Below the pieces are notes generated by a model. The model saw nothing but the letters and a program-made list of their open reading frames with translations, was not told the DNA's origin and did no database searches. From NCBI GenBank assembly GCA_040954595.2, contig CM082595.2, positions 7,058,193 through 7,122,192 of the forward strand: a stretch of DNA of 64,000 bases. The letters are read 5' to 3'. Positions 6,455 to 58,731 of the stretch are shown here, in pieces; position 1 is the stretch's first letter, and each line of letters begins with the position of its first letter. The stretch comes from Balanoglossus misakiensis (taxonomy: Eukaryota; Animalia; Hemichordata). The position numbers and the translations under genes are program-made.

Positions 6455-6486
<32 letters not shown>

Positions 6487-6490
6487 GAAG

Positions 6491-6641: not shown

Positions 6642-6643
6642 AA

Positions 6644-9600
6644 AAAAAAGATGAAGATGAGCCTGTGACACCAGCATCAATGCAACCTGAGATAAAATCA
6701 GAAGAAACAGGAGCTGAGAAAGCCAGACATTCACAACCGGAGACAATGGGAAAAGACACTGAGACTGTGGCCGAGATGATGGAAGAAGGAGTCGATGGAA
6801 CTGAGACTACAGGTAGTCAAGAGATATCTGAGGATACAAAGGGAGCCAGTGTTTCAGCAGAATCTTCTAAAACAGATTTATCAGGTATGTCCATTACATA
6901 TATCAGTGTTGGAAAACAACAGTTAAGTACATATCAGTATGCTGATACTACTAAAGGGGCAAATTGATTCAAAACTTCAAGTAAAATTAATGTCTAAGTC
7001 ATCTCTCCACTGCAGGAAGTAAAGAGATATCTGAGGATACAAAGGGAGCCAGTATTTCAACAGAACCTTCTAAAACAGGTATGTGCATTTCATCTCAGTG
7101 TTGGAAAATAACAGTTGAATACATGTGTTGATACTTAGGGATCAGTTGATTCAAAACTTCAAGTAAATGTTAAATCATTGGTTGCCAGACTTCTACCGGT
7201 ACTACCAAACTGCATTGTGTGTAAATGTATAACATAAGAAAACCTGAAGACAAAACATTTATGGCACTTACCAGAAACCTTGACATCACAACGCAAATTT
7301 TTACAAGTAAGAGGCAAGATGAGAATAGAGGTCTGGTCACCAACAATTCAGAGAGTTCAAAATCATTATAAGAAACTTTTCACTTGATCAAACATAAATA
7401 AAGTAACGTCAGAAGATACCAACCTTGTCATCTTTGAATTCAATAATTCTTTGCAAGAATAGATTGGCTGTCTGGTGATTGATGAATACTTTTGTCTGTA
7501 AAATATAAAAATCAAAATGCGTGCAGATATTGACTCAATAACATGTGGATTAGATTAATTTTGCTATGATCAATTCTGCCAGAGCATTTGATGGAGCATC
7601 AAGGTGTGCCAGAATAGGAAAAGAAAAGCTATGAGCCAATTTGTGTGTAAATGTCCAATGTACAAGTAGGCTGATTTTTTGCAGATACAGACAGCATAAA
7701 GCAATATAAAATACCAGTACACCAGTGGTTCAGCCTTTGTTTTGATTGGTATGGTTGAATCCATACACAAGAAAAAGGGGTGAAAGGTTCACTCTTTGTT
7801 ACAGTGGCCAGAATAAAACAACTGTGGTCCAGGGTGAAAATGCTCAATTTCTACAATTTCAACCACTAGCTACAATCATTCAATTTCTTCATTTGACTTT
7901 GGAATTGTCATATGTAGATATTCCACAACATCAAGAAACTTTAATTTTGTTATGATTATAAATAATCAAAAAAGGTAATTCAAATTAGGAACTTACCAAT
8001 GTTTTATCCAAGTGACAATCTGGAACAGCCAGTGGTGTTGAAACAGACTATTTATCATGACTCATCCTAAGTAACTGCAGGTTTTCCATCTCTCAGATCA
8101 TCTGAAATGATGTCACTATATAAGTGGTTAGGGTGTACTCTTGCAAAAAAAGATATCACTAAATTTCCAACCATGCATTTTACTTTCCAATAAATTCTCT
8201 AAAGTTAGAAAGGTTTACACCAATAATTTTCTCAAGGGTTTATTCACAAAAATATTCACCTTGTCAAAGAAAGTACAAGCCCTCTCAGCTAAGGAGTAGA
8301 TAATTCTTCTCTGTTCACCAATATGACAATTACTGATTGAAAAGCAGACCATCTCTGGTTGGCTGGGAAAAGAAACAAAATCTTTGGCACAACAACATTT
8401 CAGATAGTACATAAAGTTAGAAATACTTTGTATTATAATAGTCTGTCAATAAAATGACAGATAGGATAGCTTTTTACTTTATATTGCAAAGCAATAGAAA
8501 TAGTTTCAGAAATTGATGTTTGTCTTGTTGCCCTGGTTTCTTGGCACTGAAAAGCTACAAGTATAAGGTAGGCAATGATCCTTGAGACATTGTTGAAGAA
8601 TTTTTATATAAGACCTACTAATTCCAAAATTACAAGGAAAAGATTATTTTTGTACTTATCTGTTAGGATGTGTTACCATGACAACAATACTGTGACTAAA
8701 TCCATTGAGCAGTTGAATAGGAACATTTTTTATGGGTTACAAAGACCATAAATAAAGTGATAATTTCAGGTAATATTTCTGCTACTTGTTTTCAAAAATA
8801 AAAATATTAACTGATATTAACGTTTTGTCCAGTTTCCATGGTTACTCGGAATTTGAAAATGTGTACATATAGAGTACTTGGGCAGAAATATATCATGGCA
8901 ATAACTCGCTAAATTTGTAAAAAAAAAAGGTTTAATTAAAGTTAAATTAAAACACTAACTTTAGCACATTGTCAATGTTTTACAAAATACATTGAGGTTC
9001 AGTTGTCATGGTTACCAGTGAATAATGCTACCATCATACATTTTTTCCTAAAAATAATGGACCAAAGAATTATCCCTGAAACTCAGTTCAAGAATTGTTA
9101 TGAAATGTCTACTGAGTCAAAAGTTACAAGTAAAAGATTATTTTTGAACTGATTTCTTTGAATGTGTTACCATGGCAACATCAACGATAGTACATCTATT
9201 GAATGGTTAAATAAGATAGTCTTTCATGTATATTATAGTAAAGCTGTCAAAAAGAGACAAAGTAAATTTCCTCCTAGCTATATTGCAGAGAAAAAGAAAT
9301 AGTTCAAGAAACTCATGGTTACTCTGGTTGCCATGGTTATTTGTCACTGTAAACATTGTGTAGAAAAACTACCCCTTAGTAGTTCAGTTGTCATAGCAAT
9401 GATTTGTTTCTTTTGTAATATGTTTTCTCTTGTTAAAATGAACAATAAAACACTAACTCTAGCATATTCCTAATGCATTTCAATACAGCATGTTTGACCT
9501 TTGACCTGTGTTTCACCTTACAGGTCACTGGTCAATGAGGACACTGAACGGCCAAAGTCCAAAGCCAGGATGAAAGTTTAATGGACCAAGAGGTATGGTG

Positions 9601-10341
9601 TTCCATGCTGACAAACTGGTGGTGTGTGACAAAGACAACAGGGTTGTACAGATACTGAATCAAGATTACACCTGTGACAAAGTCTTGGGAAGTTTTGATG
9701 GTCAGTTTGCAAAGCCATTCCAGCCATTGGATGTAGCTGTCTCCCATGACAACATCTACTTCATAAATGATGGTGGAAATTCTCAAATTGTTGTTTGTGA
9801 TCAAAACAATAAAATTCTTAGAATAATTACTCTACCTGCAGGCGTCAATGTCTGTGGCATCGCTATACTGAATGGATTTGTTTTGGTCACTGAGGTCAAT
9901 GGTGATCGGCTACTCAAGTACACCCAAGATGGTCAGTATGTTGCAGAGGTTGGTGGTGAAGGTGATGGCCAAACACAATTCAGTGGGCCATTCTCTGTGG
10001 TGGTCAACAGTAAGAATGTGATCATGGTGTCTGACTATTACAATCACTGCATCAAGTGTTTTGATGCTGAATTGAAATTCTTGTATCAATTTGGTGTGGA
10101 AGGTTCAGGTCCTGGTCAGCTGAGGTTTCCACACAACATTGACGTCGATGACGACGATAATTTGTTTGTGTGTGATTGGGTGAATAATAGGATTGTGAAA
10201 TGGAGATTTGATGGAGAGTGGGTCTGTCACTTATTTGAAGGTGAGGTGAGACTCCCTGTGTTCATTGCAGTCAGCGGTGACAGAATTGCTGTTGGAGAGT
10301 CTGGCAGAGACCAAATCAAAGTATTCCACAAGCAGACATAA
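6644..10341 (+). pseudogene. Copy A of the GT4-TRADD-N-coiled coil-NHL gene, 3' part only: linker exons ~6644-6884 and 7016-7078, NHL exon 9524-10341
   Basis: Homologous to the linker and NHL exons of copies B and C. The linker exon abuts the HINE array at aaaagatgaagatgag. In-frame TGA at 9571-9573 where B and C have CGA (Arg). Confidence 0.85.
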
Positions 10342-17162: not shown

Positions 17163-17634
17163 CTGTTGGCGGGAAAAAAAATATTTCAACTTTATTTGTG
17201 AAAATTACAGTTTAAAGACATTATATTAGAAAATTTATCATATTTATTATGTGCGATAATATTCAGTTCAGTCTCATCACATTTGCTGGTAGATTCTATC
17301 AAAACAGAACATGTAACTTTATTTTGAGCCACCGTTTCTAAAATATCATTCATTCACTATATATCCACATGTAGAATAACATAAATGGTGTCTTGTATCA
17401 AACATTATTAATGGAAAAAGGGTAGGGAGAGAGAGACTTTGTCCCTTTAATTGAATTCGCCTATATATCGGCAAACAGGCTCCCTCCCTTACAGTGAAGT
17501 GAACACCGTGAAGGTCTGAACCTAATGTATCATTAGGCAGATTCTGGTGATGCTTCAGGTTAAACATGTATACCGATAGCGCAATGAAAGAAAGAATAAA
17601 CGTGTACATGTGTATCTCTCTTTTCTTCTTCAAG

Positions 17635-17789: not shown

Positions 17790-20700
17790 GTAAGAAAATC
17801 TGTATACATTGTATGTATATAAAAGTAGGGTAGTAGGAGAAACGAAAGGCGGTATAATCTCTACAACGCTGTTTCGTGAGTCTCTGGGTGATTTCGGACT
17901 AAACTACGCCACTTACCCACACAGAAACCATCTTTAAAAGACAAAACAGGCAGCATATGACAGAATCGGAGGCGTTTTCGTCAAGTTTGTTTAAAGTTTT
18001 GAAGCTTCCGGGTTCTGGGTATCCTGTGACATTAGCGTAATATACGCAGTACGCAGTTACGCGCACAGAAATTCGGGTCAGCTTTCATCATTCATGACTC
18101 AACAAACAAAAATTAAGTTTATAAGTTTGATTTTTATTCTTCATCGGTTTAAGTTTCCAATTTCTCTATCTATGCTAGAAAGCGCTCTTATACAGTCGCA
18201 TTCTGGGCTCTGTTCGTGTGACGAATGGTGGGCTAACTTTAAAAATACAACAGGATGAAATGAATCATTCTGCGGGCAATGTTGTCCGTTTCGTCAGCTA
18301 ATCAAAGATTATAACCGTCTGGGGACTACATGCCCCCACTTCACACACGACTGACGTAATCAAGCTTTGCGTTATCTGCAAAGTTGGTCTCGGCAAACAC
18401 GACAATGTCACGGCTGACAAAAATGTTCTGCCGATAACCACTGCTTGGCTCAGCGCTGACCGTCAACCCAGACTGGACTCTGCCTGCTGAGGGCGCTAGT
18501 CACTGTCCCATCCTCGTACCCCGGTTCTCGAGAGTGCACGATAATACACCAAACAACAGAAATGGCAAAATTAAGGGACCTCCATGACCAAACTATGGAG
18601 TCCTGACTAGACCAACTGATCTCAACTATTGTTTGTGGCTGTACATTAAGACATAAACACATTGTTTGTCATATATACAAAGTAACAACCACATTGTTTC
18701 TGAGAGTTTTAAACCAGAAATTGCCCCTAAATTATACTATTTTGCTATTGGCTATCCATTCACCTTGATATGAATAAAAAACTTCAATTTTGTGGACTGA
18801 CATCATACATATTTTATGTACATACATACATACCAGTACATACATGTACATGTATACACACATGCCTGCAAGAACTTGCACACATACCATACACAAATAT
18901 ACCGGTATACTGGTACATACACCATCAATCTTGTATTGGCAAATTACAATTAATCAGAAGCACCTACACTTGCTGGAAAATGTCTATGTTTACAAAAATA
19001 TACCGGTACTACATGATTCAATGCAAAATATAAGCTATAATACTATACTTGTTGGCATTTATTGGTATTTTTTGCTGTAAATTTGGAAATTAACAAGATT
19101 TTACTTTGTTAATAGTGAGACAGTTGAAGCTGACCTTATTTGACCTTCCCCTCATTACATAGGATGTCAACAAATCTCAAAGTGAAACTTAAAAACAATT
19201 TCTACTTTAAGTTGAGCGGGCAACGATAAAAGTTTAAATCACTAAAGAATATCAAAAACATTAGTGAAAGGTACTAATAAATCTTGAGTTCATGAAGCTG
19301 TAGGGCATTTTTTTCAAAGGTTTTTAGATTTTTAGAATAATACTGACATGTTTTAAATGGAGACTGGCAACTGAACTTTGACAGTGCCTGGATCTCCACC
19401 GTGTTGGGCCACTGTAAGTAAACTCTTTGTTTTGCACCCTCATGCAAATAGTTTGTTGTTTTCTTTTGTTTTTTTGAAGATTTTCTGACCACAAAAGTCT
19501 GTTACAAATTTTACATAATTTGCTCAAATCACCTGCAAGGTTGAGGTGTATGTGTTATGAACAATGAATTTGAAAATTACTGCTTGAATCTTGAATGAAT
19601 ACTTCTCTGACAAGGATCCAAAATATATGAATTCCATGTACAACTGTATTATCTGCAATCGACCGTATCTGACCTTTACCTCATATATCCAACTGTCCTG
19701 TTGACAAACATTAAATGGAAATCCAACAGAAAGAAATATATTTGAATTGAATAGAAGATGACAAAGTTGCAGTCACCAAAGAATATTTAAAACATTTGAT
19801 GATGTTTTAGTTAGTTGCAGTGAAACATTGTAAAAGTTAATAACTGAACTTCAATTACTGACATGTTCTAAATGGATGATGTCAGTTGAACTTTGATAGA
19901 GTCCCAGACTAGATGTACAACACAGGTATTTACTCAGATCACATGACAAGCGTGCTTGGTATCTCGAGGTACAAAAAATCTGACTCAGCAACTTTTTTGC
20001 CATTTTTTCCCGGTGAGCATGTCACCTGCAGAGCGCTAATACAGTTGTGTGCCTCAGGACAGAATTTCTACTTTGTGAAGGAATCAACTTATCTGTTACA
20101 ACACTAAGAGGTATGTTGCATTGAACTTGGTGATTTTCTGTCTTTTTCTTTCAGTCCTCAAACTCAAGCCACACCTTTTTAATTTTCATGTAACAGAAAC
20201 ACACCTTTAAAAAGAATTCTATTGGAAATAACTTAACAATTAAGCGTCCAAACTTTTCTTGGCTTTGAAAGATGACCAGAATATTGTGAATACCAATATA
20301 CTTGTATTAATTTACATGTGACTAATACCACTTATATCACATGTATAAGGATTGAAGCTCTTACTTGTGAAGGAATATCATCCACTCTTTACAACCATTT
20401 TCATATGTATGTAAAGTGTACTGAAACTGATGATTTATTATCTTGTGTTTTAACTGAAGATATTGAATATATATAAATGACATTGTTATTATGTTAATGC
20501 CAGAGATTCCAAACTCTGATATCAAATCTACAACACAGGTATGTGACAAGTACTGAGCAGCTCGTACGGTACTCGATCGGAACCAAACTCTGGGATTTCT
20601 CCTCTTTTTGCCAGTGGGAGCTACTCAAGCTTTGTATGGATTGAATGGATTGAAACTCTAACTTCTGAAGGAATCAACCTCTCTGTTACAACATTACTAT

Positions 20701-21676: not shown

Positions 21677-24206
21677 ATGTCAGAACCATCTGCAGCACTG
21701 GTTGTATTGAAATCATGGGACAAGGAGGCAAAAACCTCCCAACCAACTCAAGCTATAATCAAACATCTCAAAGAAAACACACTCCAGTCTGAGAACGTTT
21801 CTGAATTCCACTGTACTACCCTTGAAATTGAAGTGAGTGAAGAACAAAAGAAAGATGCAGAGAGTGTTAGTGCTACTTTGATCTCAGCTGTAAGAGACAA
21901 GAGATTGGATCCTCATGAAGACCCCCCTGCAATAAACTGGCTTGTTCACCATGATACATACTTCCCAGGACTGAAGGAACTGAAAAACATCCAACATGTA
22001 GTCGGATATTCTCCTCAGACACAAACTGCAGCCAAAGCAATTCATGAAAGTCTCTTCCCTGAAGCCAAACTTCACCAACTCAGACTTCCTGACCCACCAC
22101 CTGTGGCAGCATTAATTGTCATGCAAACCTGGCAGACAGAATCAGAAGATCAGACAACAACACCAAGTCACCAGCTTGTCACAAAATTTCAAGAAGAAAC
22201 CCTGAAGACAGAGAAAGTTTCTCAATCCTACTGTACTACACTTGATGTTGTTGTGAGTGAAGAACAAAAGAAAGATGCAGAGAAATTTGATGTTACTTTG
22301 ATCCCAGCTATAAGAGACGAGAGGATGGATCCTTCTGAAGACCCCCCTGGAGTAAACTGGCTTTTTCACCATGGTACATACTTCCCAGACTTGAAGGGGC
22401 TGCAAAACATCAAGCATGTAGTGGGAATCTCTCCAAAGACAAAAAATGCAGCAGCCGCAATTCACGAAAGTCTTTTCCCTGAAGCCAAACTTCACCAACT
22501 CTCACTTCCTGAACCACCAGCTGCAGCGTTACTGCTACTACCAACCTGGGACACAACCTCAGAAGGGCCGATTGCAAAACCAAGTCATATGCTTGTCAAT
22601 GAGTTCCATGAAATGATAAAGTCTGAGAATGTTTCTGAATTCCTCTGTACTACCCTTCAAGTTGAAGTGAGTGAAGAACAAAAGAAAGATGCAAAGCGTG
22701 TGAATGTCACTTTGATTCCAGCGAAAAGAAACAAGTGGTTGGATCCTCATGAAGACCCCCCTGCAATTAACTGGCTTGTTCACTATGGTACATACTTCCC
22801 TGGACTGAAGGAACTGAAAAACATCCAACATGTAGTCGGATATTCTCCAAAGACACAGAATGCAGCCAAAGCAATCCACGAAAGTCTCTTCTCTGAAGCC
22901 AAACTTCATCAACTCCATCTTCCAGATCCACCTCCTGGAGTATTATTTGTGTATGACGACTGGAACAAAGAAGATTGTGGCTTGACTGGGTTTCACAGAA
23001 CTCTTGTACAAGATTTCTGTAAAAGGAAAGTCAAAGAAGGAAGAGCTTACTCCACTCTGGTTGGTGTCAAAGTAAGTGATGACCAGAAGGCAGATGCTGC
23101 CAAGTGTCGGGTTACATTGATTCCAGCACAACAACCAGAAGACAGAACTGCAGAGCCAGAAGAAGATCTGCCACATTTAAGATGGCTGTCATATCATGAA
23201 ATCTACTACCCTCACCTCAGACAGCTACAAAACATCAAGTATGTTGTTTGTTATGCTCCGAGGACTGGATTCGCTGCTGCAAATATCAGAAAAAAATTGT
23301 TTCCTGATGCAGAACTAGTGATGATCAACCATGCCTATGAAGAACCCAACTGTCGGTTGAAACAACCAAAAGGAAAGTTAAGTGAAATGATGCTGAAGCT
23401 GGCCAGTGAAGCTGATATCATATTTTCTATTGGTCCAAGCATGTACGAGCATTTCCAGAACGAATACCGGGCTACCTTTGATGGCAGGGAACTACACATG
23501 ATCCCTCATGAAGAGATTTTTCCCAGACCTGCTGAAATCTTTTTCAAGAAAGACCCAAAGTTCCTAGATGGAGTGACTACTCACAGCATACTGACATACG
23601 GGCAGATTGATACACAAGAAGCCTTGGACAGATGTGAGACAATAGCAGCTGCTATTGGAATTGTAGCAAACCGACTGAAAGATTTGTTACGTGACAAACT
23701 TCTGAATTGGTCAATACGTGGAGCAGGCGAGGCTGAATCGAAGCATATTCTACAGCAGATGAACAATGTAATGGCAGATCTTCACCCAGAATACTCAGAA
23801 ACGACCTTACTGAGAGTTCTGCATCAATCCCATAGCTGTTTTCTTGCCCCGTTCTACGAGGATTATCCCTTTTGTGGTTTAGAAGCTATAGCTGTTGGGT
23901 TACCAACCTTTATCTATAAATATTCCCAGCTTGGGCAGTTGGTCAACAAGTACTTTCCAGCAGACATTGTACAAAGATTTGTGATTTCTAACCCTGGACC
24001 CAATGAGATTTCAGAGAAGATAACATGGGTTGTCCAGTATACCAAGTTAGCTTTTGAAAAAGCTAAGGATCTGAAGAAGGCTTTCATGGAGAGTGAAGAT
24101 GTTAATAGAAGTTATGGTGCATTTGCTAGTTTGTTGACACCAAACCAAAGAAGCGAAGATGAAGGTGGTCTTGACCAGTGCAGCAAGGATACAACAAATC
24201 CTGCAG
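21677..24206 (+). CDS. Copy B large exon: three ~138-aa repeats followed by a GT-B/GT4-like glycosyltransferase domain
   Basis: EEQKKDA at ~21840, 22260, 22674 (period 414-420 nt). The fourth module DDW...GLTGFHRTL...LVMINH...ADIIFSIGP continues into a C-lobe with EDYPFCGLEAIAVGLP (EX7E motif of GT4). Confidence 0.8.
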
Positions 24207-39311: not shown

Positions 39312-39774
39312 CTGTTGGCGGGAAAAAAAATATTTCAACTTTATTTGTGAAAATTACAGTTTAAAGACATTATATTAGAAAATTTATCATATTTATTATG
39401 TGCGATAATATTCAGTTCAGTCTCATCACATTTGCTGGTAGATTCTATCAAAACAGAACATGTAACTTTATTTTGAGCCACCGTTTCTAAAATATCATTC
39501 ATTCACTATATATCCACATGTAGAATAACATAAATGGTGTCTTGTATCAAACATTATTAATGGAAAAAGGGTAGGGAGAGAGAGACTTTGTCCCTTTAAT
39601 TGAATTCGCCTATATATCGGCAAACAGGCTCCCTCCCTTACAGTGAAGTGAACACCGTGAAGGTCTGAACCTAATGTACCATTCGGATGACGTCAGGTAA
39701 TGCTTCAGGTTAAACATATACCGATGGCACAATGAAAGAAAGAATAGACGTATATCATTTTCTTCTTCTTCAAG

Positions 39775-39929
39775 GTATGGACGATTGAAATCTATCTTCT
39801 CAGCTTTGCTTGTCCAATCCGTTTTTTGTTTTGTGGCGGCGCTGTCACCAAACCTTGTCATTTTTATGTTGTGTCAGTTCATCATCGGGTTCACCTATCC
39901 AGGAATCTTTATTGCAACGTTTGCATATG
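39775..39929 (+). pseudogene. Orphan SLC22-type exon, copy 2
   Basis: 155-nt exon, YGRLKSIFSALLVQSVFCFVAALSPNLVIFMLCQFIIGFTYPGIFIATFAY, with AG/GT flanks. Confidence 0.7.
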
Positions 39930-45656: not shown

Positions 45657-48186
45657 ATGTCGGGAAAACCATCTGCAGCACTGGTTGTATTGAAATCATG
45701 GGACAAAGAGGCAAAAACCTCCCAACCAACTCAAGCTATAATCAAACATCTCAAAGAAAACACACTCCAGTCTGAGAACGTTTCTGAATTCCACTGTACT
45801 ACCCTTGAAATTGAAGTGAGTGAAGAACAAAAGAAAGATGCAGGAGGTGTTGGTGCTACTTTGATCTCAGCCAAAAGAAACAAGTGGTTGGATCCAAAGA
45901 AAGATCCACCTGGAGAACACTGGCTCTTCAACCATTGGGTCTACTTCCCTGGACTGAAGGACCTGAAAAACATCCAACATGTAGTCGGATATTCTCCACA
46001 GACACACACTGCAGCCGCAGCAATTCATGAAAGTCTCTTCCCCGAAGCCAAACTTCATCAACTCCAACTTCCCAATCCACCACCTGTGGCAGCATTAATG
46101 GTCATGCAAACCTGGCAGACAGAATCAGAAGATCAGACAACAACACCAACTCATCAGCTTGTCACAAAATTTCAAGAAGAAACCCTGAAGTCAGAGAAAG
46201 TTTCTCAATCCTACTGTACTACACTTGATGTTGTTGTGAGTGAAGAACAAAAGAAAGATGCAGAGAAATTTGATGTTACTTTGATCCCAGCTATAAGAGA
46301 CGAGAGGATGGATCCTCTTGAAGACCCCCCTGGAGTACACTGGCTTGTTAACCATGGTACATACTTCCCAGACTTGAAGGGACTGCAAAACATCAAGCAT
46401 GTAGTGGGAATCTCTCCAAAGACAAAAAATGCTGCAGTGGCAATTCATAAAAGTCTCTTCCCTGAAGCCAAACTTCACCAACTCTCACTTCCTGAACCAC
46501 CAGCTGCAGCGTTACTGCTACTACCAACCTGGGACAAAACCTCAGAAGGGCAGATCACAAAACCAAGTCATATGCTTGTCAATGAGTTCCGTGAAAAGAT
46601 TAAGTCTGATAAAGTTTCTGAATTCCACTGTACTACCCTTGAAGTTGAAGTTAGTGAAGAACAAAAGAAAGATGCAGAAAGTTTTGATGTTACTCTGATC
46701 CCAGCCAAAAGAAACAAGTGGTTGGATCCAAAGAAAGATCCACCTGGAGAACACTGGCTCTTCAACCATTGGGTCTACTTCCCAGATCTGAAGAAACTGA
46801 AAAACATCCAACATGTAGTCGGATATTCTCCACAGACACACAATGCAGCCAAAGCAATTCATGAAAGTCTCTTCCCTGAAGCCAAACTTCATCAACTCCA
46901 TCTTCCAGATCCACCTCCTGGGGCACTGTTTGTGTATAATGAATGGAACAAAGAAGATTGTGGCTTGACTGGGTTTCACAGAACTCTTGTACAAGATTTC
47001 TGTAAAAGGAAAGTCAAAGAAGGAAGAGCTTACTCCACTCTGGTTGGTGTCAAAGTCAGTGATGATCAGAAGGCAGATGCTGCCAAGTGTCGGGTTAAAT
47101 TGATTCCAGCACAACAAGAAGAAGACAGGACTGCAGAGCCAGAAAAAGATCTGCCACATTTAAGATGGCTGTCATATCATGAAATCTACTACCCTCACCT
47201 CAGACAGCTACAAAACATCAAGTATGTTGTTGGTTATGCTCCAAGAACTGGATTCGCTGCCGCAAATATCAGAAAAAAATTGTTTCCTGATGCAGAACTA
47301 GTGATGATCAACCATGCCTATGAAGAACGCAACTGTCTGTTGAAACTACCTCCAGGAACGTTGAGTGAAATGATGCTGAAGCTGGCCAGTGAAGCTGACA
47401 TCATATTCTCAATTGGTCCAAGTATGTATGAGCATTTCAAGAAGAAATACCGGGCTACCTTTGATGGCAGGGAACTATACAGGATCCCTCATGAAGAGAT
47501 TTTCCCCAGACCTGCTGAAGTCTTTTTCAAGAAAGACCCAAAGTTCCTAGATGGAATGACTACTCACAGTATACTGACATACGGGCAGATTGATACACAA
47601 GGAGCCTTGAACAGATGTGAGACAATAGCAGCTGCTATTGGAAGTGTAGCAAACCTACTGAAAGATTTTTATGACAAACTTCTGAATTGGTCAATACGTG
47701 GAGCAGGTGAGGCTGAACTGAAGCATATTCTACAGCAGATGAACAATGTAATGGCAGATCTTCACCCAGATTACTCAGAAACGACCTTACTGAGAGTTCT
47801 GCATCAATCTGATAGTTGTTTTCTTGCCCCATTCTACAAGGATTATCCCTTTTGTGGTTTAGAAGCTATAGCTGTTGGGTTACCAACCTTTATCTATGAA
47901 TATTCCCAGCTTGGGCAGTTGGTCAACAAGTACTTTCCAACAGAAATTGTACACAGATTTGTGATTTCTAACCCTGAACCCAAGGAGATTTCAGAGAAGA
48001 TAACATGGGTTGTCAAGAATACCAAGTTTGCTTTTGAAAAAGCTAAGGATCTGAAGAAGGCTTTCATGGAGAGTGAAGATGTAAATAGAAGTTATGGTGC
48101 ATTTGCTAGTTTGTTGACACCAAACCAAAGAAGCGAAGATGAAGGTGGTCTTGACCAGTGTGGCAAGGATACAACTAATCCTGCAG
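45657..48186 (+). CDS. Copy C large exon: three repeats plus GT4-like domain
   Basis: Collinear with 21677-24206. The motif reads KDYPFCGLEAIAVGLP. Confidence 0.8.
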
Positions 48187-51100
48187 GTATAGGACAATTT
48201 GAAATCTTACTGTTTGATCTGGGATGCAGAGTCATGTTATTTGGTTTCTGGGAGACAATTGACTTGAACCGCTGTAATCATCCTGTCTTATACCCTTCTC
48301 GAGTTGTGCACATGGTAAGATGGGAGACCTATTTGATGATAACATTGTATTCTATTTTTTTGTAGTCATCACCTCTGTTCACAATTAATGTGTCAGCAAG
48401 AGAATCAGATTGACCAATTTGTCATGTAAACTACAGTGACACAATATTGCGTAGTATACGTACTTTTACACACTTCAGATGAAATGATTCTGTGGTGCTT
48501 ATCTGAAAATAATCATTTGTATTCTTTTCCGCCCGAGTAAAATAATTGAATCATAGAACAAAATAATAACAACAAAAATACCTGGTATCTAAATGTTTAT
48601 TTAAATATTTTTGTTGTTCTTGTGGAAATGTCATTTCGCTATTTCGCAAAGTATCTATTTTGCAATGTATCATAAGCCCTTTAATGTTGTCTCTGAATTA
48701 ATATATTTTTTTTCCTACTTCTCATCATCACCAGATCATCATGCCGACACAACAATTACAATCCATGTCGGACTGGATGACAATGTCTACCACAAGCATC
48801 TAGCAGAAAATGAGGGCCAGAATGAGGAAAGGCAACAGGCAGCATCTACCGGTACAGATTGGAACAACTGCAAACAACAGTTGAAGAGAAGAGCATCTGA
48901 TGTGGTATCCAACAGTGATGACACTGAGAAAGTCAAGAAAGCCTGCACTGAGAATTTGGGTAAAGTGGAAATAACCAGTATGAAATCAGAGTCTCTGCAA
49001 ATCACAGTCAACATGCGTAGACTTTATAATCTCTACAGATTGCGGGGAAGCTGTCTTGAAGATTCAAGAAGTTTAGCCAAGGCATTAGAACCAATCTTGA
49101 TGACAGATGAAATGACAGAGGCCAACACAGCTGGAATACCACTACAGTTGACAGCAACATATGACCAAACCAGGTTTGATGAACTGGAACTATTCTTTCT
49201 GAACAGTAAGTTTTAATAGTTTATCAGAGAATACTATAAAACTCTCAGACTATTGATCAAACCAGAAAAAAAAAAATTCAGGACAATTTACTATGTATCG
49301 ATTGTTATAACAGCACTTGATCGGTTAAATGCTCTAAAAGAGACACACATCACTCTGAAATCATACCCCCGGTAGATGATAGAATTATTCAACAGAAGAA
49401 CTTGATTTGATAACGATTTCACAGTACCGGTAATTTACTTTCCTCAATGTATCTTTCAGGAGATGGTGGAGGAATAGGACCAGTGGTATGTGATGACAGC
49501 ATTGATGAGGAATATGTCAATGAGATACTGGCCGAGGTATGCTTTGTAATTTTAACCCTTAAAGTGCCACACCTGATCAATTGCAAGCCAAGCTGCTCTT
49601 GTATAATTGTCTTCAAGAGCAATATCAGCTGCACAGGTCAATACCGGTTTACCCGTTGCGAATCTGGTGATCGACTGTGTGGTATTTGAGTGATGGGTAT
49701 TATAATATCATGTGGTCATGTTTTTTATATATAGTTGTCAAATAATAAAAGTGTTCATTTCTTCCAATTTCAGATTGACAGAACACACCTGACTTTGCAA
49801 CGGGAGTTAACAGAAAAAGATTCTGATACTGAACACACTGGCCTGAAACAAAGTGAGTGATTTTACCATCATTTCAGTCAATGACAACAAAATGCACATT
49901 TAGGCTTCATAAATATTCAAAGATTCGAAAAATAGTGGCATATATCCAAATTTTCCTTGACAATACACATTTGACTTGGCGTTGCACAATATACTCTGAC
50001 TTTTTTACCACATGAACAATGTACTACATGTAGGAAGGTTTTTGTTTTGGCCATAAAAATTGATATCTCCTTAAAATAAATTAGGATTGTTAACTTGTAA
50101 TGATGGAAGAAACAATTGTCAGCCAACATTAACATTCTACCATACATTGCACAGTATACCATTTGTTCTTTCTGCATCACCAGTTTGATTTGATGCTTGA
50201 AAGATTGATGTCACTTGTGCCAAGATTAAAAACCTGATTTTGTTTGTATTTTGCAGGTCAGATATTATCCAGGTTGTTGTTCCTTGAGATTGATCCAATA
50301 CGAGAAATCCAGAAGTCAGCTGACAAATATGCACCACTGATACTCAACAGTGAGCAGTGTAAAAGACAGAAAGGAAGACAGTGTGACATCATACAACTTA
50401 CAGTGAAAATGACCGAGAAAGTTCAGCATATCCTATCTCACAGACCTCAAATCTTAGAGTTACTGGGTGTTAGTAGGTATCTTATGACTGACACAGAAAG
50501 GGTGGATTTCAGTGACTCAGGTAAAATACAGGGATTTTCTAACTGACAGATATGATGAAAACAGCACATTTGCTTTACAAGAAGTATATTTGCTGCACTT
50601 TGTAACGAAAAGTAAATGGGAACATACACAGCTATGCACTGGTGTGCAACATGAATGAAACTTTACAATAGTTATGCAATAATATCATTCTCTATGTGTG
50701 ATAATTATGTAACTTAATAACCTTTGTGCACTGAGTGTAACAGTCAGCACATTTTTACAACAGATGCAATGTATTCTATGGATCAAGGTAGTATGGGAAA
50801 ATGTGTGCTCAAGATTAATGATATGCATACATGTATATTACAGTACTTGTCCAAGGTTACTTGATATCAATGACAGATTTATCTACATAATCCATTTCAG
50901 AGTTGGAAGAAGAAATCATACAACATGGCAGACCAATTCATCCCATACCAGCTGAATCTATCAGCTTACAAGCAAAAAGCTTACTGCCCTTTGAAGCTAG
51001 TGCAAAGCAGCTCAAAGAACTAAAACAACTTTTGGATGGGGCCCTGATAGAGAAGTCTAAAATTCAGACTGAGTCAGCTGAGAATACGAGAAAGCTGGTT

Positions 51101-54100
51101 GGAGAAATAACTAAACTGCAGACTGAGTCAGTTGAGAATAAGAGAAAGCTAGTTGGAGAAATCACTAAACTGCAGACCGAGTCAGCTGAGAATACGAGAA
51201 AGCTGGTTGGAGAAATAACTAAACTGCAGACTGAGTCAGTTGAGAATAAGAGAAAGCTAGTTGGAGAAATCACTAAACTGCAGACCGAGTCAGTTGAGAA
51301 TAAGAGAAAGCTAGTTGGAGAAATCACTAAACTGCAGACAGAGAAAATGATTCTAGAGAATCAGTTGAAAGAAGCACTTCAGGAAAAGTCACTCTTAGAA
51401 GAGCAGTACAAACAGAAACTTGCAAGTGATGAGAAAGTAGCTGCCACACAACTTATGGATGTCATTTCCCTGAAGCAAAGATTGAAAGAATTAGACCCTA
51501 GAAACATCCAAGAGTTGGAATCTAAACTTGAACAACAAGAACAAACCATAACTGAGCTAAAGTCAAAATTATCTAAAATTCAGGATGAGCAATCTGACAC
51601 TGCAGAGCTGCAACTGAAAACTCTTCAACTGGAAGAAGATGCAACATTGGAAACTGAACAAGGTGAGATTGATATGAATCTGCTTCGATTATTCCTGCAT
51701 CAAGAAACCCTTGGTCAAATAAAATCTTCCAGCTCACATAGATTATAACAAATGCAAGTTTTCTTTGTTGTAAGAATTACCCAAGTACTTAACATTTCAT
51801 TTCAAATATTTGTAGGCAAACTCACACCATCTGATATGCCTCTCAAGAAAGATGACACGGGAGACATATCACCTGTAACCATGGCTACAAAAGATGAAGA
51901 TGAGCCTGTGAAACCAGCAGCTGTGCAACCTGAGATGGCATCAGAAGAAACAGGAGCAGAGAAAGCCAGACATTCACAACAGGAGACAATGGGAAAAGAA
52001 GACACTGAAGCTGTGACCAAGATGACGGAAGGAGATGGAACTGAGACTGAGCAAACAAAATCAAAACAATTTAAGACAAAGGAAAAAGGTGCACCAGTAA
52101 AACCTGTCAATAACAAACTTAGAAAGTTGGAACTACATTTACATCAATCTGATGTTGGAAAGCATGGTATAGTATACTAGTATTCTTGATAGAAAAAAAT
52201 CAGTCACAGATATCCAATGAGATGAATAAACATTCAATGTTGGTTCAATCTGATGTTGGAAAGCAGTACCCGGTATATTCTTGACAGAGGAAAATGAGAT
52301 ATCCCATAAGAAATAAGAAAACATTCCATTAAATATCAGCCAAACTTAATCAGATTAATTGACAGCACTATATTTTCATTGTTTGATCACTTTCTTTTGC
52401 AGAAGAAAAGCAATCCAAAGGTGTCATCAGAAAGATAAGGAGATTTTTTGGTGGAAGTAAAGAAACTGCTGGTGATTCAGGGACTACAGGAAGTAAAGAA
52501 ATATCTGAGGATACAAAGAGAGCCAGTGTTTCAGCAGAACCTTCTAAAACAGGTATGTGCATTTCATCTCAGTGTTGGAAAATAACAGTTGAATACATGT
52601 GTTGATACTAAGGGACCAGTTGATTCAAAACTTCAAGTAAATATTGAATCATTGGTTGCCAGACTTCTACCGGTACTACCAAACTGCATTGTGTGTAAAT
52701 GTATAACATAAGAAAACTTGATGACATAACATTTATGGCACTTACCAGAAACCTTGACATCACAAAGCACATGAGGCAAGATGAGAATAGAGGTCTGGTC
52801 ACCAACAATTCAGAGAGTTCAAAATCATTATAAGAAACTTTTCACTTGATCAAACATAAACAAAGTAACGTCAGAAGATACCAACCTTGTCAAATTTGAA
52901 TTCAATAATTCTTTGCAAGAATAGATTGGCTGTCTGGTGATTGATGAATACTTTTGTCTGTAAAATATAAAAATCAAAATGCGTGCAGATATTGACTCAA
53001 TATCAATATCATGTGGATTAGATTAATTTTGCTATGATCAATTCTGCAAGAGCATTTGATGGAGCATCAAGGTGTACCAGAATAGGAAAAGAAAAGCTAT
53101 GAGCCAATTTGTGTGTAAATGTCCAATGTACAAGTAGGCTGATTATTTGCAGATACAGACAGCATAAAGCAATATAAAATACCGGTACACCAGTGGTTCA
53201 GCCTTTGTTTTGATTGGTATGGTTGAATCCATACACAAGAAAAAGGGGTGAAAGGTTCAGTCTTTGTTACAGTGGCCAGAATAAAACAACTGTGGTCCAG
53301 GGTGAAAATGCTCAATTTCTACAATTTCAACCACTAGCTACAATCATTCAATTTCTTCATTTGACTTTGGAATTGTCATATGTAGATATTCCACAATATC
53401 AAGAAACTTTAATTTTGTTATGATTATAAATAATCAAAAAAGGTAATTCAAATTAGGAACTTGCCAATTTTTTATCCAAGTGACAATTTGGAACAGCCAG
53501 TGGTGTTGAAACAGACTATTTATCATGACTCATCCTAAGTAACTGCAGGTTTTCCATCTCTCAGATCATCTGAAATGATGTCACTATATAAGTAAGTGGT
53601 TAGGGTGTACTCTTGCAAAAAAAGATATCACTATTTCCAACCATGCATTTTACTTTCCAATAAATTCTCTAAAGTTAGAAAGGTTTACACCAATAATTTC
53701 TCAAGGGTTTATTCACAAAAATATTCACCAGGTCAAAGAAAGTACACGCCCTCTCAGCTAAGGAGTAGATAATTCTTCTCTGTTCACCAATATGACAATT
53801 ACTGATTGAAAAGCAGAGACCATCTCTGGTTGGCTGGGAAAAGAAACAAAATCTTTGGCACAACAACATTACAGATAGTACATAAAGTTAGAAATACTTT
53901 GTATTATAATAGTCTGTCAATAAAATGACAGATAGGATAGCTTTTTACTTTATATTGGTACTGAAAAGCTACAAGTATAAGGTAGGCAATGATCCTTGAG
54001 ACATTGTTGAAGAATTTTTATGTAAGACCTACTAATTCCAAAATTACAAGGAAAAGATTATTTCTGTACTTATCTGTTAGGATGTGTTACCATGACAACA

Positions 54101-57100
54101 ATACTGCCACTAAATCCATTGAGCAGTTGAATAGGAACATTTTTTATGGGTTACAAAGACCATAAATAAAGTAGACAGAATTTAAAGAATCTTGAACTGT
54201 CAGTGAATTTTCTTGAGGGTCTTTGTTCTAATCATCCTACAGTGCAAAATTACGAGATGCTCGAGTCAGCAAAAAGTGATTTGGAGAAAGCTTATGATTA
54301 TATTACAGAAGGAGCGGTCGTAAGATCCAGGATTAATTGGTACGAGAAAGGTGAAAAATGTAACAAGTTCTTTTTAAGTTTGGAAAAGGTAAATAAACGC
54401 AACTCGAGTATCAGCAATTTGAAGAAAGATGAGTATACAATTATAGACAACCCAAAGAATATTTTGTGTGAAATTAAGCAGTTTTATGCCAAGCTTTACT
54501 CAAGGTGCGCCACAAACTCCAACGATGTGCATTATTTCCTGGATGCAAATTTACCAATGTTGTCAGAGAATGATAAAGTTTTGTGTGAGGGTCCTTTGAC
54601 CCCTGGGGAAGTTTTCTCGGTTCTTCTCTCCCTTCCAGACAACAAAAGCCCCGGCAATGATGGCCTTACAAAAGATTTTTACGTGGCGTTTTGGCCACAG
54701 GTGGGGAATTTAGTTTTGAATTCTCTTAATTATGGTTACAGAACGGGGGAATTTTCAAATTCACAGAAACAGAGTGTTATAACTCTGATTGATAAACCTG
54801 GGAAGGATCAACTCTATCTGAAAAATTGGAGACCAATCTCCCTTATGAATGTTGACATGAAGCTTGCTTCAAAATGCCTTGTTAAACGTATTGAAAAAGT
54901 TTTGCCCTGCTTAATTGGTGACTCCCAAGCGGCCTTTGTCCGGGGGAAAAACATTGGTGATTATATCTGTTTGATAGATGAGATTTTTCATTACACCTGT
55001 AATGCTGATATTCCAGCAATTTTATTAGCCATAGATTTTGAAAAAGCTTTTGACACTGTGAGTTGGGATTATCTCTACAATACGTTGTCTTCCTTTAATT
55101 TTGGAGTGTCCTTCATCAACTGGGTTAAAACTTTATATTTTAACATCGAAAGCACTGTAATGAACAATGGGTTTGGTACTGGCTATTTTAAGCTTGAGAA
55201 GGGAGTGCGCCAAGGTGACCCTTTGTCACCTATGTTATTTATTCTGGTTTTAGAAACACTCTTGCATTCAATAAGAAATAACCGACAGATTAGTGGTATA
55301 AATATTGGCAGTGTTGAAATTAAGGAGTCGGCGTTCGCCGACGATATGACCTGTTTTTTATCAAATGAAAACTCTGTTAGAATTGTTTTTGAAATGTTAA
55401 CTTCCTTTTATAATGCTTCTGGTTTGAAAGTCAACAAAGATAAGACAGAAGCTGTTTGGCTTGGGAAATGGAGACTTCGAAAAGATGAGGCGTTTGGGGT
55501 AAAGTGGCCCACCCCTACTATCAAGATTGTGGGGATTCATTTTTCGTATAATGAAAAAATTGCCCAGGAAAAAAATATTGTTACCCCAGTCGAAAATCTA
55601 AAAAAGGTCCTCAATATGTGGAAAACTAGGAATTTGACCATCATTGGGAAAGTTCAAGTTATTAAGTCATTGGCAATTTCCAAATTAACATATGTGCTTA
55701 CACATGTAATTTTTCCTAATGAAGTAATAGGTCGGGTTCATAAGTTAATTTATAATTTTCTCTGGAATGGACAAGACCGGGTTTGCAGGAATATAATGAT
55801 AGGGGAGGTGGGCCAAGGAGGCTTAAAAATGCCCAATTTAGATGTGATGATAAAAACAAAGCAAGTTTTACTGATTAAACGCCTGTTGAATGAGGAATGT
55901 AAACACCCTTGGAAACACTTTGTCTTACACAGTTTAGAGAAAGTCGGTGGAAAATTACTTTTTAAATGTAACTTCCGCACCAATCTTTTGCCTGTGCAAG
56001 TCTCCAGTTTTATAAATAATTGTCTTGTCACATGGTCAGAAATCAACATTATTCCAAATACTACAGACCAGGTGATTTGGAACAACAGAAATGTCCTTGT
56101 TGGAGGAAAGTCGGTTTTTTATAAGGCTTTTTCTGACGCTGGCTTTAATTTCATCTCTGACATGTTTACAGGTTTTAATAGAGTATCATGGTCTGTATTT
56201 GAGCAGAAAGGCCTGAATTTAAATCAGAAATTAAAGTGGTTAGGATTGACACTTTCTGTTCCAAACAAGTTAAAAAATTGTACCAAAGCACATAGTGCAC
56301 ATGAGCTTTGTATTTCATTAAATGGCACAATCTGTAATTTAGACACTTTAACGAAAAAGAGTTTGAAATGTAATTTGAACGACCGTATTATAGAGACTCC
56401 AAAAAGTCAAGCAACACTGGAAAAAATGTTGAATATATTTAATCTAAACTGGGAAAGAATGTATGACTTCACTTACAAGTTATCAATACATTGTAAAGCT
56501 AGAGCTTTTCAATTTAAATTACTTCACAATATTTTGTATACAAACAAACAGCTAAACAGGTACAATCCACAGAGGTTTCCAACTGCTCTTTGTGATTTAT
56601 GTAAAGTGGAAACAGAGTCCATCGATCATTTATTTCATAGTTGCAATTGTACTACTGCTCTCTGGAGAGACCTACTGTTTACGTTGGGTATCCCTCTTAA
56701 ATTGAAAAAACTACCATCAGTGTTATGTATGGTTTTGGGTGACCCAAACGAGACTTTTATAGTCAATTTCATAGCAATGCAAGTTAGAATGTACATTTAC
56801 TACTGTAAATTAAATAATAGAATTCCGAATATCACTGGGTTTATTGGTCAGCTCAAAAACATACATGAAATTGCACTTAAGATTGCAACTGCAAATCATA
56901 AAATGTATTTTCATCTTAAAAAATGGTCGTCACTAATGAGGTATATAACAAACTGAGAATACCAGATTGTATTGTTTTTTCTTTTTTCTCTTCTTTTCAT
57001 TAAGTTATGCTTCCAAAAAAAAAAAATAATTGTCATTTTTTTTTTTTTTCAAAAAATCTACTTATGTATCAAAATGACTGTTTGTCTTCCCAATAAAAAG

Positions 57101-58731
57101 TATGAAATAAAAAAAAAAAAAAAAAAAAAAAAAAAGACCATAAATAAAGTGATAATTTCAGGTAATATTTCTGCTACTTGTTTTCAAAAATAGAATTATT
57201 AACTGATATTAACATTTTGTCCAGTTTCCATGGTTACTCGGAATTTGAAAATGTGTACATATAGAGTACTTGGGCAGAAGTATATCATCGCAATAACTCG
57301 CTAAATTTGTAAAAAAAAAGGTTTAAAGTTAAATTAAAACAGTAACTTTAGCACATTGCCAATGTTTTACAAAATACATTGAGGTTCAGTTGTCATGGTT
57401 ACCAGTGAATAATGCTACCATCATACATTTTTCCTAAAAATAATGAACCAAAGAATTATCCCTGAAACTCAGTTCAAGAATTGTTATGAAATGTCTACTG
57501 AGTCAAAAGTTACAAGTAAAAGATTATTTTTGAACTGATTTCTTTGAATGTGTTACCATGGCAACATCAACGATAGTACATCTATTGAATGGTTAAATAA
57601 GATAGTCTTTCATGTATATTATAGTAAAGCTGTCAAAAAGGGACAAAGTAAATTTCCTCCTAGCTATATTGCAGAGAAAAAGAAATAGTTCAAGAAACTC
57701 ATGGTTACTCTGGTTGCCATGGTTATTTGTCACTGTAAACATTGTGTAGAAAAACTACCCCTTAGTAGTTCAGTTGTCATAGCAATGATTTGTTTCTTTT
57801 GTAATATGTTTTCTCTTGTTAAAATGAACAATAAAACACTAACTCTAGCATATTCCTAATGCATTTCAATACAGCAATACAGTTTGACCTTTGACCTGTG
57901 TTTCACCTTACAGGTCACTGGTCAATGAGGACACTGGACGGCCAAAGTCCAAAGCCAGGACGAAAGTTTAATGGACCAAGAGGTATGGTGTTCCATGCTG
58001 ACAAACTGGTGGTGTGTGACTCAGGCAACAGGGTTGTACAGATACTGAATCAAGATTACACCTGTGACAAAGTCTTGGGAAGTTTTGATGGTCAGTTTGC
58101 AAAGCCATTCCAGCCACAGGATGTAGCTGTCTCCCATGACAACATCTACTTCATAAATGATGGTGGAAATTCTCAAATTGTTGTTTGTGATCAAAACAAT
58201 AAAATTCTTAGAATAATTACTCTACCTGCAGGCGTCAATATCTGGGGCATCACTCTACTGAATGGATTTGTTTTGGTCACTGAGGTCGAAGGTCATCGGC
58301 TACTCAAGTACACCCAAGATGGTCAGTATGTTGCAGAGGTTGGTGGTTGGGGTGATGGCCAAACACAATTCCGTTCCCCATACTCTGTGGTGGTCAACAG
58401 TAAGAATGTCATCATGGTGTCTGACAGTGAAAATCACTGCATCAAGTGTTTTGATGCTGAATTGAAATTCTTGTATCAATTTGGTGTGGAAGGTGAAGGT
58501 CCTGGTCAGCTGAGGCGTCCAGACAGCATTGACGTCGATGACGACGATAATTTGTTTGTGTGTGATGATGGGAATGCTAGGATTGTGAAATGGAGATTTG
58601 ATGGAGAGTGGATCTGTGACTTATTTGAATGGAAGGTGGGATACCCTCAGTTCCTTGCAGTCAGCGGTGACAGAATTGCTGTTGGAGAGGTTGGCAGCGA
58701 CCAAATCAAAGTATTCTACAAGCAGACATAA
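45657..58731 (+). CDS. Copy C: ~1807-aa paralogue of the GT4-TRADD-N-coiled coil-NHL gene
   Basis: Exons 45657-48186, 48735-49205, 49460-49536, 49774-49852, 50257-50520, 50901-51662, 51816-52088, 52403-52552, 57914-58731. GT-AG introns, 5424 nt open frame. Coding indels versus copy B are all multiples of 3. Confidence 0.8.
48735..49205 (+). CDS. Copy C exon 2, TRADD-N-like domain
   Basis: Paralogous to 24753-25217 with a 6-nt in-frame insertion. Confidence 0.55.
51065..51334 (+). repeat. Coding 54-bp minisatellite x5 with two unit variants
   Basis: Units in order SAENTRK, SVENKRK, SAENTRK, SVENKRK, SVENKRK. Confidence 0.97.
54173..56956 (+). CDS. LINE ORF2 reverse transcriptase with C-terminal zinc finger; endonuclease domain lost by 5' truncation
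   Basis: KSPGNDG, NWRPISL, IDFEKAFD, GVRQGDPLSP, FADD, GGLKMP, CDLC..ESIDHLFHSC. The frame is open from the insertion edge to TGA at 56956. Confidence 0.95.
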   Translation, partial: RQNLKNLELSVNFLEGLCSNHPTVQNYEMLESAKSDLEKAYDYITEGAVVRSRINWYEKGEKCNKFFLSLEKVNKRNSSISNLKKDEYTIIDNPKNILCEIKQFYAKLYSRCATNSNDVHYFLDANLPMLSENDKVLCEGPLTPGEVFSVLLSLPDNKSPGNDGLTKDFYVAFWPQVGNLVLNSLNYGYRTGEFSNSQKQSVITLIDKPGKDQLYLKNWRPISLMNVDMKLASKCLVKRIEKVLPCLIGDSQAAFVRGKNIGDYICLIDEIFHYTCNADIPAILLAIDFEKAFDTVSWDYLYNTLSSFNFGVSFINWVKTLYFNIESTVMNNGFGTGYFKLEKGVRQGDPLSPMLFILVLETLLHSIRNNRQISGINIGSVEIKESAFADDMTCFLSNENSVRIVFEMLTSFYNASGLKVNKDKTEAVWLGKWRLRKDEAFGVKWPTPTIKIVGIHFSYNEKIAQEKNIVTPVENLKKVLNMWKTRNLTIIGKVQVIKSLAISKLTYVLTHVIFPNEVIGRVHKLIYNFLWNGQDRVCRNIMIGEVGQGGLKMPNLDVMIKTKQVLLIKRLLNEECKHPWKHFVLHSLEKVGGKLLFKCNFRTNLLPVQVSSFINNCLVTWSEINIIPNTTDQVIWNNRNVLVGGKSVFYKAFSDAGFNFISDMFTGFNRVSWSVFEQKGLNLNQKLKWLGLTLSVPNKLKNCTKAHSAHELCISLNGTICNLDTLTKKSLKCNLNDRIIETPKSQATLEKMLNIFNLNWERMYDFTYKLSIHCKARAFQFKLLHNILYTNKQLNRYNPQRFPTALCDLCKVETESIDHLFHSCNCTTALWRDLLFTLGIPLKLKKLPSVLCMVLGDPNETFIVNFIAMQVRMYIYYCKLNNRIPNITGFIGQLKNIHEIALKIATANHKMYFHLKKWSSLMRYITN
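54173..57132 (+). mobile_element. 5'-truncated non-LTR retrotransposon (L1/Tx1 clade) in the last intron of copy C
   Basis: 18-bp TSD aaagaccataaataaagt at 54155-54172 and 57133-57150. Poly(A) tail preceded by aataaa. Empty sites at ~8741 and ~29921 in the other units. Confidence 0.96.
57914..58731 (+). CDS. Copy C terminal exon: NHL beta-propeller
   Basis: Same length and blade motifs as 30698-31515, intact frame. Confidence 0.93.

Follow-up and report, generated by a model that had tools for sequence, protein, structure and literature searches.

What kind of gene has been multiplied on contig CM082595.2 of Balanoglossus misakiensis (GenBank assembly GCA_040954595.2), where the 64,000-nucleotide window analysed here (positions 7,058,193 to 7,122,192, forward strand) carries a tandem array whose members join glycosyltransferase (GT) lobes, an adaptor-like domain, a coiled coil and an NHL β-propeller in one predicted protein? 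An original prediction, made from the letters alone, had read the array as a candidate immune sensor-effector gene with a variable NHL sensor. NHL propellers are best known from TRIM proteins, in which they mostly serve as conserved modules for binding RNA or protein. Hemichordates are the sister lineage of echinoderms, and their intracellular immunity has barely been studied. The evidence set out below inclines us, by a modest preference, to the view that the array codes for an immune receptor that acts inside cells and belongs to a family of acorn-worm proteins, with a propeller that varies mainly on its binding face.

Gene model and variation of the propeller

The window (GC 33-43%, zero N) is a collinear tandem repeat from 6.6 kb onward, built of 21-27 kb units whose collinear blocks are 94-98% identical, with NHL exons spaced 21,174 (copy A to B) and 27,216 bases (B to C) apart. 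Long frames with Pfam matches comprise GT4-conflict at 21557-24310 and 45537-48365, NHL at 9574, 30679 and 57895, and the reverse transcriptase of a long interspersed nuclear element (LINE) at 54170. Splice sites were read from the sequence and then joined by script, which gave a predicted gene model of nine exons with GT-AG at every intron, phase 1 at seven of the eight introns, and a single open frame in copies B and C (Table 1). Each runs to 1807 aa from an ATG aligned with homolog starts, or to 1816 aa from an in-frame ATG 27 nt upstream, and the two differ in residue at 180 of 1812 aligned codons. Copy A has a TGA at 9571-9573 inside its NHL exon, and its exon 7 is cut by a block of tandem repeats. 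The two intact copies and the disabled third had been described in this form originally, as had the domain order, (GT N-lobe)x3-GT4-TRADD-N-like-coiled coil-NHL, in which only the domain of exon 5 had been missed. A scan with Rfam gave 0 matches.

Splice joints 2/3, 5/6 and 8/9 sit in stretches that are uninterrupted in RefSeq homologs, and the GT C-lobe, the TRADD-N-like domain and NHL occur together in a single model in 31 of 117 homologous proteins (named isoforms were dropped beforehand; other isoforms and gene fragments may remain in this count), so that the nine-exon predicted gene is supported from outside. Exon 5 (phase 1/1) is exactly the segment absent from homologs such as P0001. 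Uncollapsed haplotypes cannot account for the repeat, given the three copies, one shared junction and copy-specific insertions with target duplication; the array is real and well formed, not an artefact.

Table 1. Features of the window; residues are counted from the ATG at 21677 (copy B).
Feature	Position	Strand	Details
Copy A, disabled 3' remnant	6646..10341	+	Exon 7 in part, a changed exon 8 region and the NHL exon at 9524-10341
Copy B, intact nine-exon gene	21677..31515	+	ATG to stop, 1807 aa; GT-AG introns and open frame; exons 21677-24206, 24753-25217, 25472-25548, 25775-25853, 26118-26381, 26620-27387, 27541-27813, 28128-28277, 30698-31515
Copy B, three tandem partial copies of the GT N-terminal Rossmann lobe	21677..22933	+	~140 aa each; residues 1-419
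Copy B, GT4-conflict domain, GT-B fold	22934..24139	+	Residues 420-820
Copy B, exon 2, TRADD-N-like domain with long helical insert	24753..25217	+	Residues ~845-1000
Copy B, exon 5, second small domain	26118..26381	+	Residues ~1050-1140; predicted ferredoxin-like fold; optional in homologs
Copy B, exon 6, predicted coiled coil	26620..27387	+	5.3 copies of a 54-bp (18-aa) repeat
Copy B, exons 7-8, low-complexity linker	27541..28277	+	
Copy B, exon 9, six-bladed NHL propeller	30698..31515	+	Hypervariable top face
Copy C, intact frame	45657..58731	+	ATG to stop, 1807 aa; exons 45657-48186, 48735-49205, 49460-49536, 49774-49852, 50257-50520, 50901-51662, 51816-52088, 52403-52552, 57914-58731
LINE, 5'-truncated (RVT_1, zf-RVT), intron 8 of copy C	54173..57132	+	Sense; poly(A) tail, 18-bp target duplication
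CpG-rich segment upstream of copy B	17796..18529	.	734 bp; candidate promoter
Importin-7 gene, 3' half, passenger in repeat unit	34700..39300	-	Also ~12600-17150 and 61850-64000; E 6e-20 to importin 7
MFS-transporter-like single exon, passenger at unit junction	39701..39930	+	MFS_1 E 9.5e-05, below cut-off

The strongest evidence lies in exon 9, which scores 57-73 bits against NHL (PF01436; cut-off 20; E 1e-15 to 1e-20) and carries six pairs of blade motifs. In NHL domains, ligands are bound on the side built by the bc and da loops (PMC4015489). Copies B and C differ at 89 of 4327 intron bases and at 41 of 813 bases of the NHL exon (p=7e-6). Pairwise ratios of replacement to silent differences per site (pN/pS) for the NHL exons are 2.10, 2.82 and 2.16 (p 0.028, 0.021 and 0.057), and with the three exons counted once, one of them from the disabled copy, 74.4 replacement changes stand against 6.6 silent ones, a dN/dS ratio of 3.0 (p=0.0025). 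At sites set by motif offsets after the three-way alignment had been inspected, 28 of 48 top-face positions (da and bc loops) vary among the three copies, compared with 14 of 207 elsewhere, and 13 of the 14 sites with three states are on the top face. Top-face codons differ at 19-28% of bases and the remaining NHL at 2.1-2.6%; on the top face pN is 0.23-0.33 and pS 0.03-0.07, with a pS of 0.03-0.04 for the whole domain. The whole-exon test depends less on the choice of offsets, as does a comparison of 17 paralogs from Ptychodera, in which variability again peaks at these positions (entropy 1.76 vs 0.89 bits, p=1.5e-9). Outside NHL no replacement excess was detected (pN/pS 0.13-1.5, none significant). 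The NHL domain varies mainly on its binding face and the remainder of the gene diverges at the intron level; top-face variation and dN/dS together make a stronger case for a variable sensor than the original prediction could.

Glycosyltransferase module and smaller domains

The GT4-conflict family (PF20706) is matched at 142.5 and 136 bits in the two intact copies (cut-off 26; E 2e-41 and 2e-39). The predicted fold is GT-B with two Rossmann lobes, as had been anticipated, and its best structural matches are retaining GT4 enzymes: residues 420-804 superpose on MshA with Z 15.6 (root-mean-square deviation 5.5, 317 aligned), and Foldseek with the GT model gave 395 of 500 matches at E 0.001. A search with the GT domain returned no related solved sequence. 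Characterised GT4s bind the sugar through the first Glu of the E-x7-E motif and the ribose through the second, the pyrophosphate being held by an Arg and a Lys (PMC8760489). In the present family, Glu 736 (the second of the motif) and a Gly (734) are invariant in 52 of 52 aligned, an acid at residue 729 is likewise kept in 52 of 52, and the N-lobe His552 in 21 of 26 rows. The first Glu position is occupied by Glu in copy B, where a formal E-x7-E is present, by Lys in copy C and by Glu in 3 of 26 rows, with the conserved acid one residue later. Gln643 stands at the Arg position and Glu or Gly at the Lys position in copies B and C, both positions having been assigned by alignment and strand order rather than from a model with ligand. 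Close homologs have Gln, Glu, Asn or Asp at the Arg position, never Arg or Lys (45 of 45 aligned); an Arg or Lys there is confined to distant hemichordate members (7 of 26 rows), and a Lys five residues beyond it occurs in 9 of 46 aligned. The loss of both basic residues makes normal catalysis doubtful, and by a narrow preference the module would be a nucleotide-sugar- or glycan-binding switch or scaffold rather than a normal transferase.

The partial N-lobe copies stop before the strand end that bears the His, and each extra lobe models as a separate α/β unit, with a predicted local distance difference test score (pLDDT) of 62-90 by block; the model with N-lobes has a mean pLDDT of 73 and a predicted template modelling score of 0.46. 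The GT N-lobe is under purifying selection (pN/pS 0.30), and the N-lobe repeats show high silent divergence between copies B and C (pS 0.19-0.21). A tract of ~100 bp in the N-lobe exon, covering the loop after the third strand, has 21 sites that group repeats 1 and 3 within each gene, flanked by sites that group by copy (43), which is evidently conversion within the exon.

It is at the GT that the best-surviving alternative, and the one closest to the original prediction, has to be weighed: a TRIM-like restriction factor whose propeller captures a foreign target for glycosylation by an active, atypical GT4, sugar replacing ubiquitin. The complete predicted GT-B fold with its retaining GT4 matches, the kept Glu, Gly, acid and His, the formal motif of copy B and the purifying selection on the N-lobe all suit an enzyme, as do reports that one Glu can be dispensable in some GT4s (PMC8760489) and that donor hydrolysis by WaaG of P. 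aeruginosa proceeds although a Thr occupies the Arg position (PMC10579960), so that the loss of one basic residue is tolerated there. Yet both pyrophosphate-holding residues are gone in copies B and C, the first Glu is seldom kept and is Lys in copy C, and ~700 residues separate the enzyme from the propeller; we consider this alternative unlikely. A similarly small chance attaches to the bolder proposal of a germline repertoire of dozens of NHL receptors with antibody-like variable faces, in which an atypical glycosyltransferase would mark or disable the captured pathogen molecule with sugar, a glycosylation counterpart of TRIM ubiquitin restriction factors in which the multiplied N-lobes would serve as a second recombining specificity module.

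Exon 2 lacks a Pfam TRADD-N match and is therefore termed TRADD-N-like; of the families named by the original prediction, GT4-conflict and NHL passed their Pfam cut-offs and TRADD-like_N alone went unmatched. The likeness itself drew support from homolog P0013, whose residues 225-332 (44% identical) reach a language-model score of 0.91 with 197 of 256 shared features with the TRADD-like_N cluster, and from turn-motif counts. The signature of TRADD-N (DEDD2 clade, PF20694) is a tiny residue plus Ser at the β2-β3 turn (PMC8195603); of 109 aligned exon 2 domains, 105 keep the turn Ser or Cys and 35, for the most part from distant members, show the full Gly/Ser-Ser/Cys turn, the window copies having Glu-Ser. 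The domain directly follows GT4, the order published for hemichordates. A profile search found no related solved sequence, and TRADD-N chains were absent among the best 50 rows of a wide fold search that covered mainly the exon 5 domain. Exon 2 is thus a TRADD-N-like candidate, with membership in the TRADD-N family unproven.

The exon 5 domain is modelled as β-α-β-β-α-β (pLDDT 37-72 by block) and resembles S6/ACT-type folds at Z 6-7.6, a matter of common fold only. It was also considered as a second TRADD-N and dropped, as the exon 2 and exon 5 domains do not align (hhalign probability 0.5%). Exon 7 gave no Pfam match. No RING or B-box was found by Pfam in the scanned exons (short exons 3, 4 and 8 by eye only) or in 12 full-length homologs, nor any NACHT or NB-ARC by Pfam in the window, in agreement with the layout first proposed. 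A hydropathy scan of copies B and C detected neither a signal peptide nor a membrane segment, apart from one borderline window inside the propeller, and a cytosolic location is proposed on this ground.

Hemichordate relatives and turnover of the array

Three homolog searches returned proteins of Ptychodera flava (12 of 12, 27 of 27 and 80 of 81, the remaining one from Glandiceps), and the family comprises ~80 Ptychodera clusters together with Glandiceps and Saccoglossus members. A full-library profile search gave 68 matches, of which 33 had already been named; 20 of the 35 new ones were looked up (12 Ptychodera, 5 Glandiceps, 3 Saccoglossus), and among those looked up no named match fell outside hemichordates. 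In a quick tree of 46 rows the window copies group with P0072-P0074 (SH-aLRT 98) at ~50% identity. Of the 74 proteins in which the GT C-lobe and the exon 2 domain occur together, two N-lobe hits occur in 31 and three in 2, compared with four in the window; P0072 has two extra N-lobes, and three extra are found in 0 of 117 homologous proteins. The constant part of the family is GT4 plus the TRADD-N-like domain, with tails of NHL, TPR, NB-ARC-TPR or PARP14-like type: P0012 has an NB-ARC (E 2e-4) and TPR tail, P0005 TPR, and P0011 an N-terminal DED. P0108 (Glandiceps, XP_077990954.1; 3027 aa) joins the GT4 and TRADD-N-like core to a PARP14-like RRM-KH-Macro-WWE-PARP tail. Some distant members have membrane segments; P0091 combines a hydrophobic N-terminus, two TRADD-N-like domains, two membrane segments and NHL. 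TRADD-N-like and NHL domains occur without GT in several Ptychodera models (P0051-P0064 and similar; 9 of 82), which may be real forms or split gene models.

The tails of these relatives (NB-ARC with TPR, TPR, N-terminal DED and PARP14-like) speak for the intracellular immune receptor that we prefer. In such a receptor, the ligand of the propeller top face would be a foreign protein or glycan that changes quickly, as selection on that face suggests; the coiled coil, by analogy with TRIM-type layouts, could cluster or oligomerise the GT4 and TRADD-N-like domains to pass a signal; the TRADD-N-like sheet might recruit a partner, as TRADD-N does the TRAF2 MATH domain; the GT module may bind a nucleotide sugar or glycan as a switch, sugar transfer being less likely; and the three extra N-lobes, recombined through gene conversion, could act as additional surfaces for binding or as decoys. 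Several points weigh against this receptor. The immune function of GT4 plus TRADD-N proteins is itself a prediction (PMC8195603). Sixteen domain sequences gave no TRADD-N match at E up to 10 within the 25 families listed, nor did 29 further relatives at E 0.001; an Atlas search with the window's own exon 2 gave no match, and the domain has no usable fold (pLDDT 30-67 there in the model of homolog P0019). The dN/dS test rests on three sequences, one a pseudogene, copies B and C alone reach only p=0.057, and the top-face contrast is inflated by its post hoc offsets. Finally, the invariant Glu and Gly and the frequent His are as compatible with a functioning active site as with a site for binding.

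Diversifying selection and copy turnover leave the opponent unnamed, which opens a second and rather improbable alternative, a self/non-self or genetic-conflict gene unrelated to infection, its variable face serving allorecognition, gamete recognition or defence against selfish elements. Fungal heterokaryon-incompatibility NLRs indeed recognise self via variable propellers (PMC12222747), but copies B and C have no signal peptide or membrane segment, paralogs end in NB-ARC-TPR and PARP14-like tails or begin with a DED, and they number dozens, spread over several contigs, instead of forming one polymorphic locus.

The array shows tandem copies, a disabled copy and diversifying selection on the binding face, the marks of the birth-and-death evolution for which it had been put forward. 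Copy B is the best candidate for a working gene, judged from its sequence. Observed/expected CpG reaches 1.05 in the segment that is the candidate promoter of copy B, compared with 0.19-0.34 within and just before the gene, and the segment is missing upstream of copy C. CpG depletion is stronger in the receptor gene body (21677-30697; 0.19-0.25) than in the importin-7 fragment at 34700-39300 (0.46), and may reflect methylation and hence long-term transcription. The LINE in copy C retains an unbroken 928-codon frame and is a recent insertion; lying in sense, it could end transcripts of that copy before the NHL exon. Upstream of copy C only, a 2.6-kb element (42230-44825) has ~250-bp terminal inverted repeats (85% alike) and no long frame. 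At 1-6646 a run of A in exon 7 of copy A is interrupted by an inserted tandem block with units of ~1.4-1.6 kb, repeats of 238 bp within them and a palindromic end of 50 bp; we take the block to resemble non-autonomous Helentron-type elements. In copy A (6805-7167) the 3' half of exon 8 is present twice and the linker is only ~85% like those of B and C, with flanks at 96-99%; the linker exons seem to turn over fast. Some 990 bp of units B and C (33751-34742 and 60960-61900) are absent in unit A at 12627, and the stretch matching the MFS-like exon ends near 17795.

The three minus-strand importin-7 fragments (14423, 36529 and 63686) have one frameshift in common, which suggests a working importin-7 gene beyond further units. 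Trial of the fragment as a neutral control failed: across 397 anchored codons, 8 silent changes and 4 replacements separate the fragments of units A and B, a departure from neutrality (p=0.0004) in a biased count that omits stretches with extra lesions in A.

Such dead passengers, the importin-7 half and the lone MFS exon, together with the dead copy A, the lost CpG-rich segment and sense LINE of copy C and the evident N-lobe conversion (21 sites in one tract), would fit recent segmental duplicates drifting to loss, with NHL variation as a patchwork of short conversion tracts from older paralogs and no selection at the locus. This we consider quite improbable. Conversion brought silent changes to the N-lobes, in contrast to the low pS of the NHL exon; the NHL changes are 1-3 codons long and spread over all six blades; both 5.4-kb frames are still open; and micro-conversion would still require selection in the donors. 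Least probable is an RNA-binding post-transcriptional regulator of Brat or TRIM71 type, hinted at originally by NHL being 'often RNA' binding, for while the closest solved structures are the NHL domains of Thin, TRIM3, TRIM71, TRIM2 and Brat (E 7e-38 to 2e-21), RNA-binding NHL domains have a positive top face (PMC4015489), and here that face is mixed aromatic and acidic (Lys+Arg 6/4/5 and Asp+Glu 4/9/6 among the top 48 positions of A/B/C, in a domain acidic as a whole by residue counts), hypervariable and not conserved, and unaccompanied by RING or B-box in the exons scanned.

For the intracellular receptor that we favour, the array provides a concrete, testable member of the predicted GT4 plus TRADD-N systems, in which NHL appears to act as a variable immune recognition surface with ~30 hot sites on one face. 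Copies B and C form a natural pair of almost identical proteins, set apart chiefly by the binding face, and hold a GT with a naturally altered donor site. If that GT is active, the result would be a sugar-based animal restriction mechanism; if inactive, GT4 domains would have been turned into binding or signalling modules in such proteins.

Comparison with known systems

Coral NLRs with glycosyltransferase domains are familiar. GT4 before TRADD-N has been reported from cnidarians, amphioxus and hemichordates and placed among predicted counter-invader systems, with DED, TRADD-N and variable WD40 propellers combined in amphioxus and TRADD-N binding the TRAF2 MATH domain (Kaur et al. 2021, PMC8195603). 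Its main text makes no mention of NHL; among the rows listed, its supplement has at least one amphioxus protein with GT4, TRADD-N and a β-propeller and several with Death, TRADD-N, coiled coil and β-propeller. The Saccoglossus family member XP_006819467.1 is entered there without TRADD-N, so the domain clade seems to have been overlooked. Full-text literature searches, covering few subscription journals, did not bring up a report of hemichordate GT4-NHL proteins as a family or of such propellers under diversifying selection. In a Saccoglossus poly(I:C) study, neither the text nor one supplement file mentions a glycosyltransferase, NHL or TRADD gene, and its further gene tables may bear on induction (PMC10210618).

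The array proteins have GT4 before TRADD-N in common with the published DEDD2-clade proteins but differ in a divergent TRADD-N-like domain, three extra N-lobes, a second domain of ferredoxin fold and a long coiled coil. The amphioxus propeller protein (XP_019644604.1) is alike in layout, its propeller bearing the general label of β-propeller. Death/DED plus TRADD-N proteins of Branchiostoma and Amphimedon also have an adaptor, a linker and a variable C-terminal propeller, but begin with a death-fold domain and have no GT4, and the Branchiostoma propellers are described as WD40. TRIM-NHL proteins (TRIM2, TRIM3, TRIM71, Brat, Thin) have in common a coiled coil followed by a homologous six-bladed NHL, whereas the array proteins have no RING or B-box in the exons scanned, carry a top face that is variable and not basic, and are multi-copy with fast turnover. 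The retaining GT4 enzymes MshA, BshA, PimB' and sucrose-phosphate synthase are alike in GT-B fold, N-lobe His and second Glu; the array GT differs in its missing pyrophosphate Arg and Lys, its unconserved first Glu and its repeated N-lobe. Closest are the RefSeq proteins XP_070561900.1, XP_070566174.1 and XP_070557115.1 of Ptychodera flava and XP_077985422.1 of Glandiceps talaboti, of the same family and domain order and ~50% identical, which are named only 'uncharacterized' or by low-complexity likeness. The array protein is thus a member of the GT4-conflict and NHL families, neither a TRIM nor an NLR, and the original view of its architecture as undescribed stands in part: the GT4 plus TRADD-N design is published and its propeller form listed at least once (PMC8195603), while the expansion of NHL-bearing members, the mark of selection on their propeller and the multiplication of N-lobes are new.

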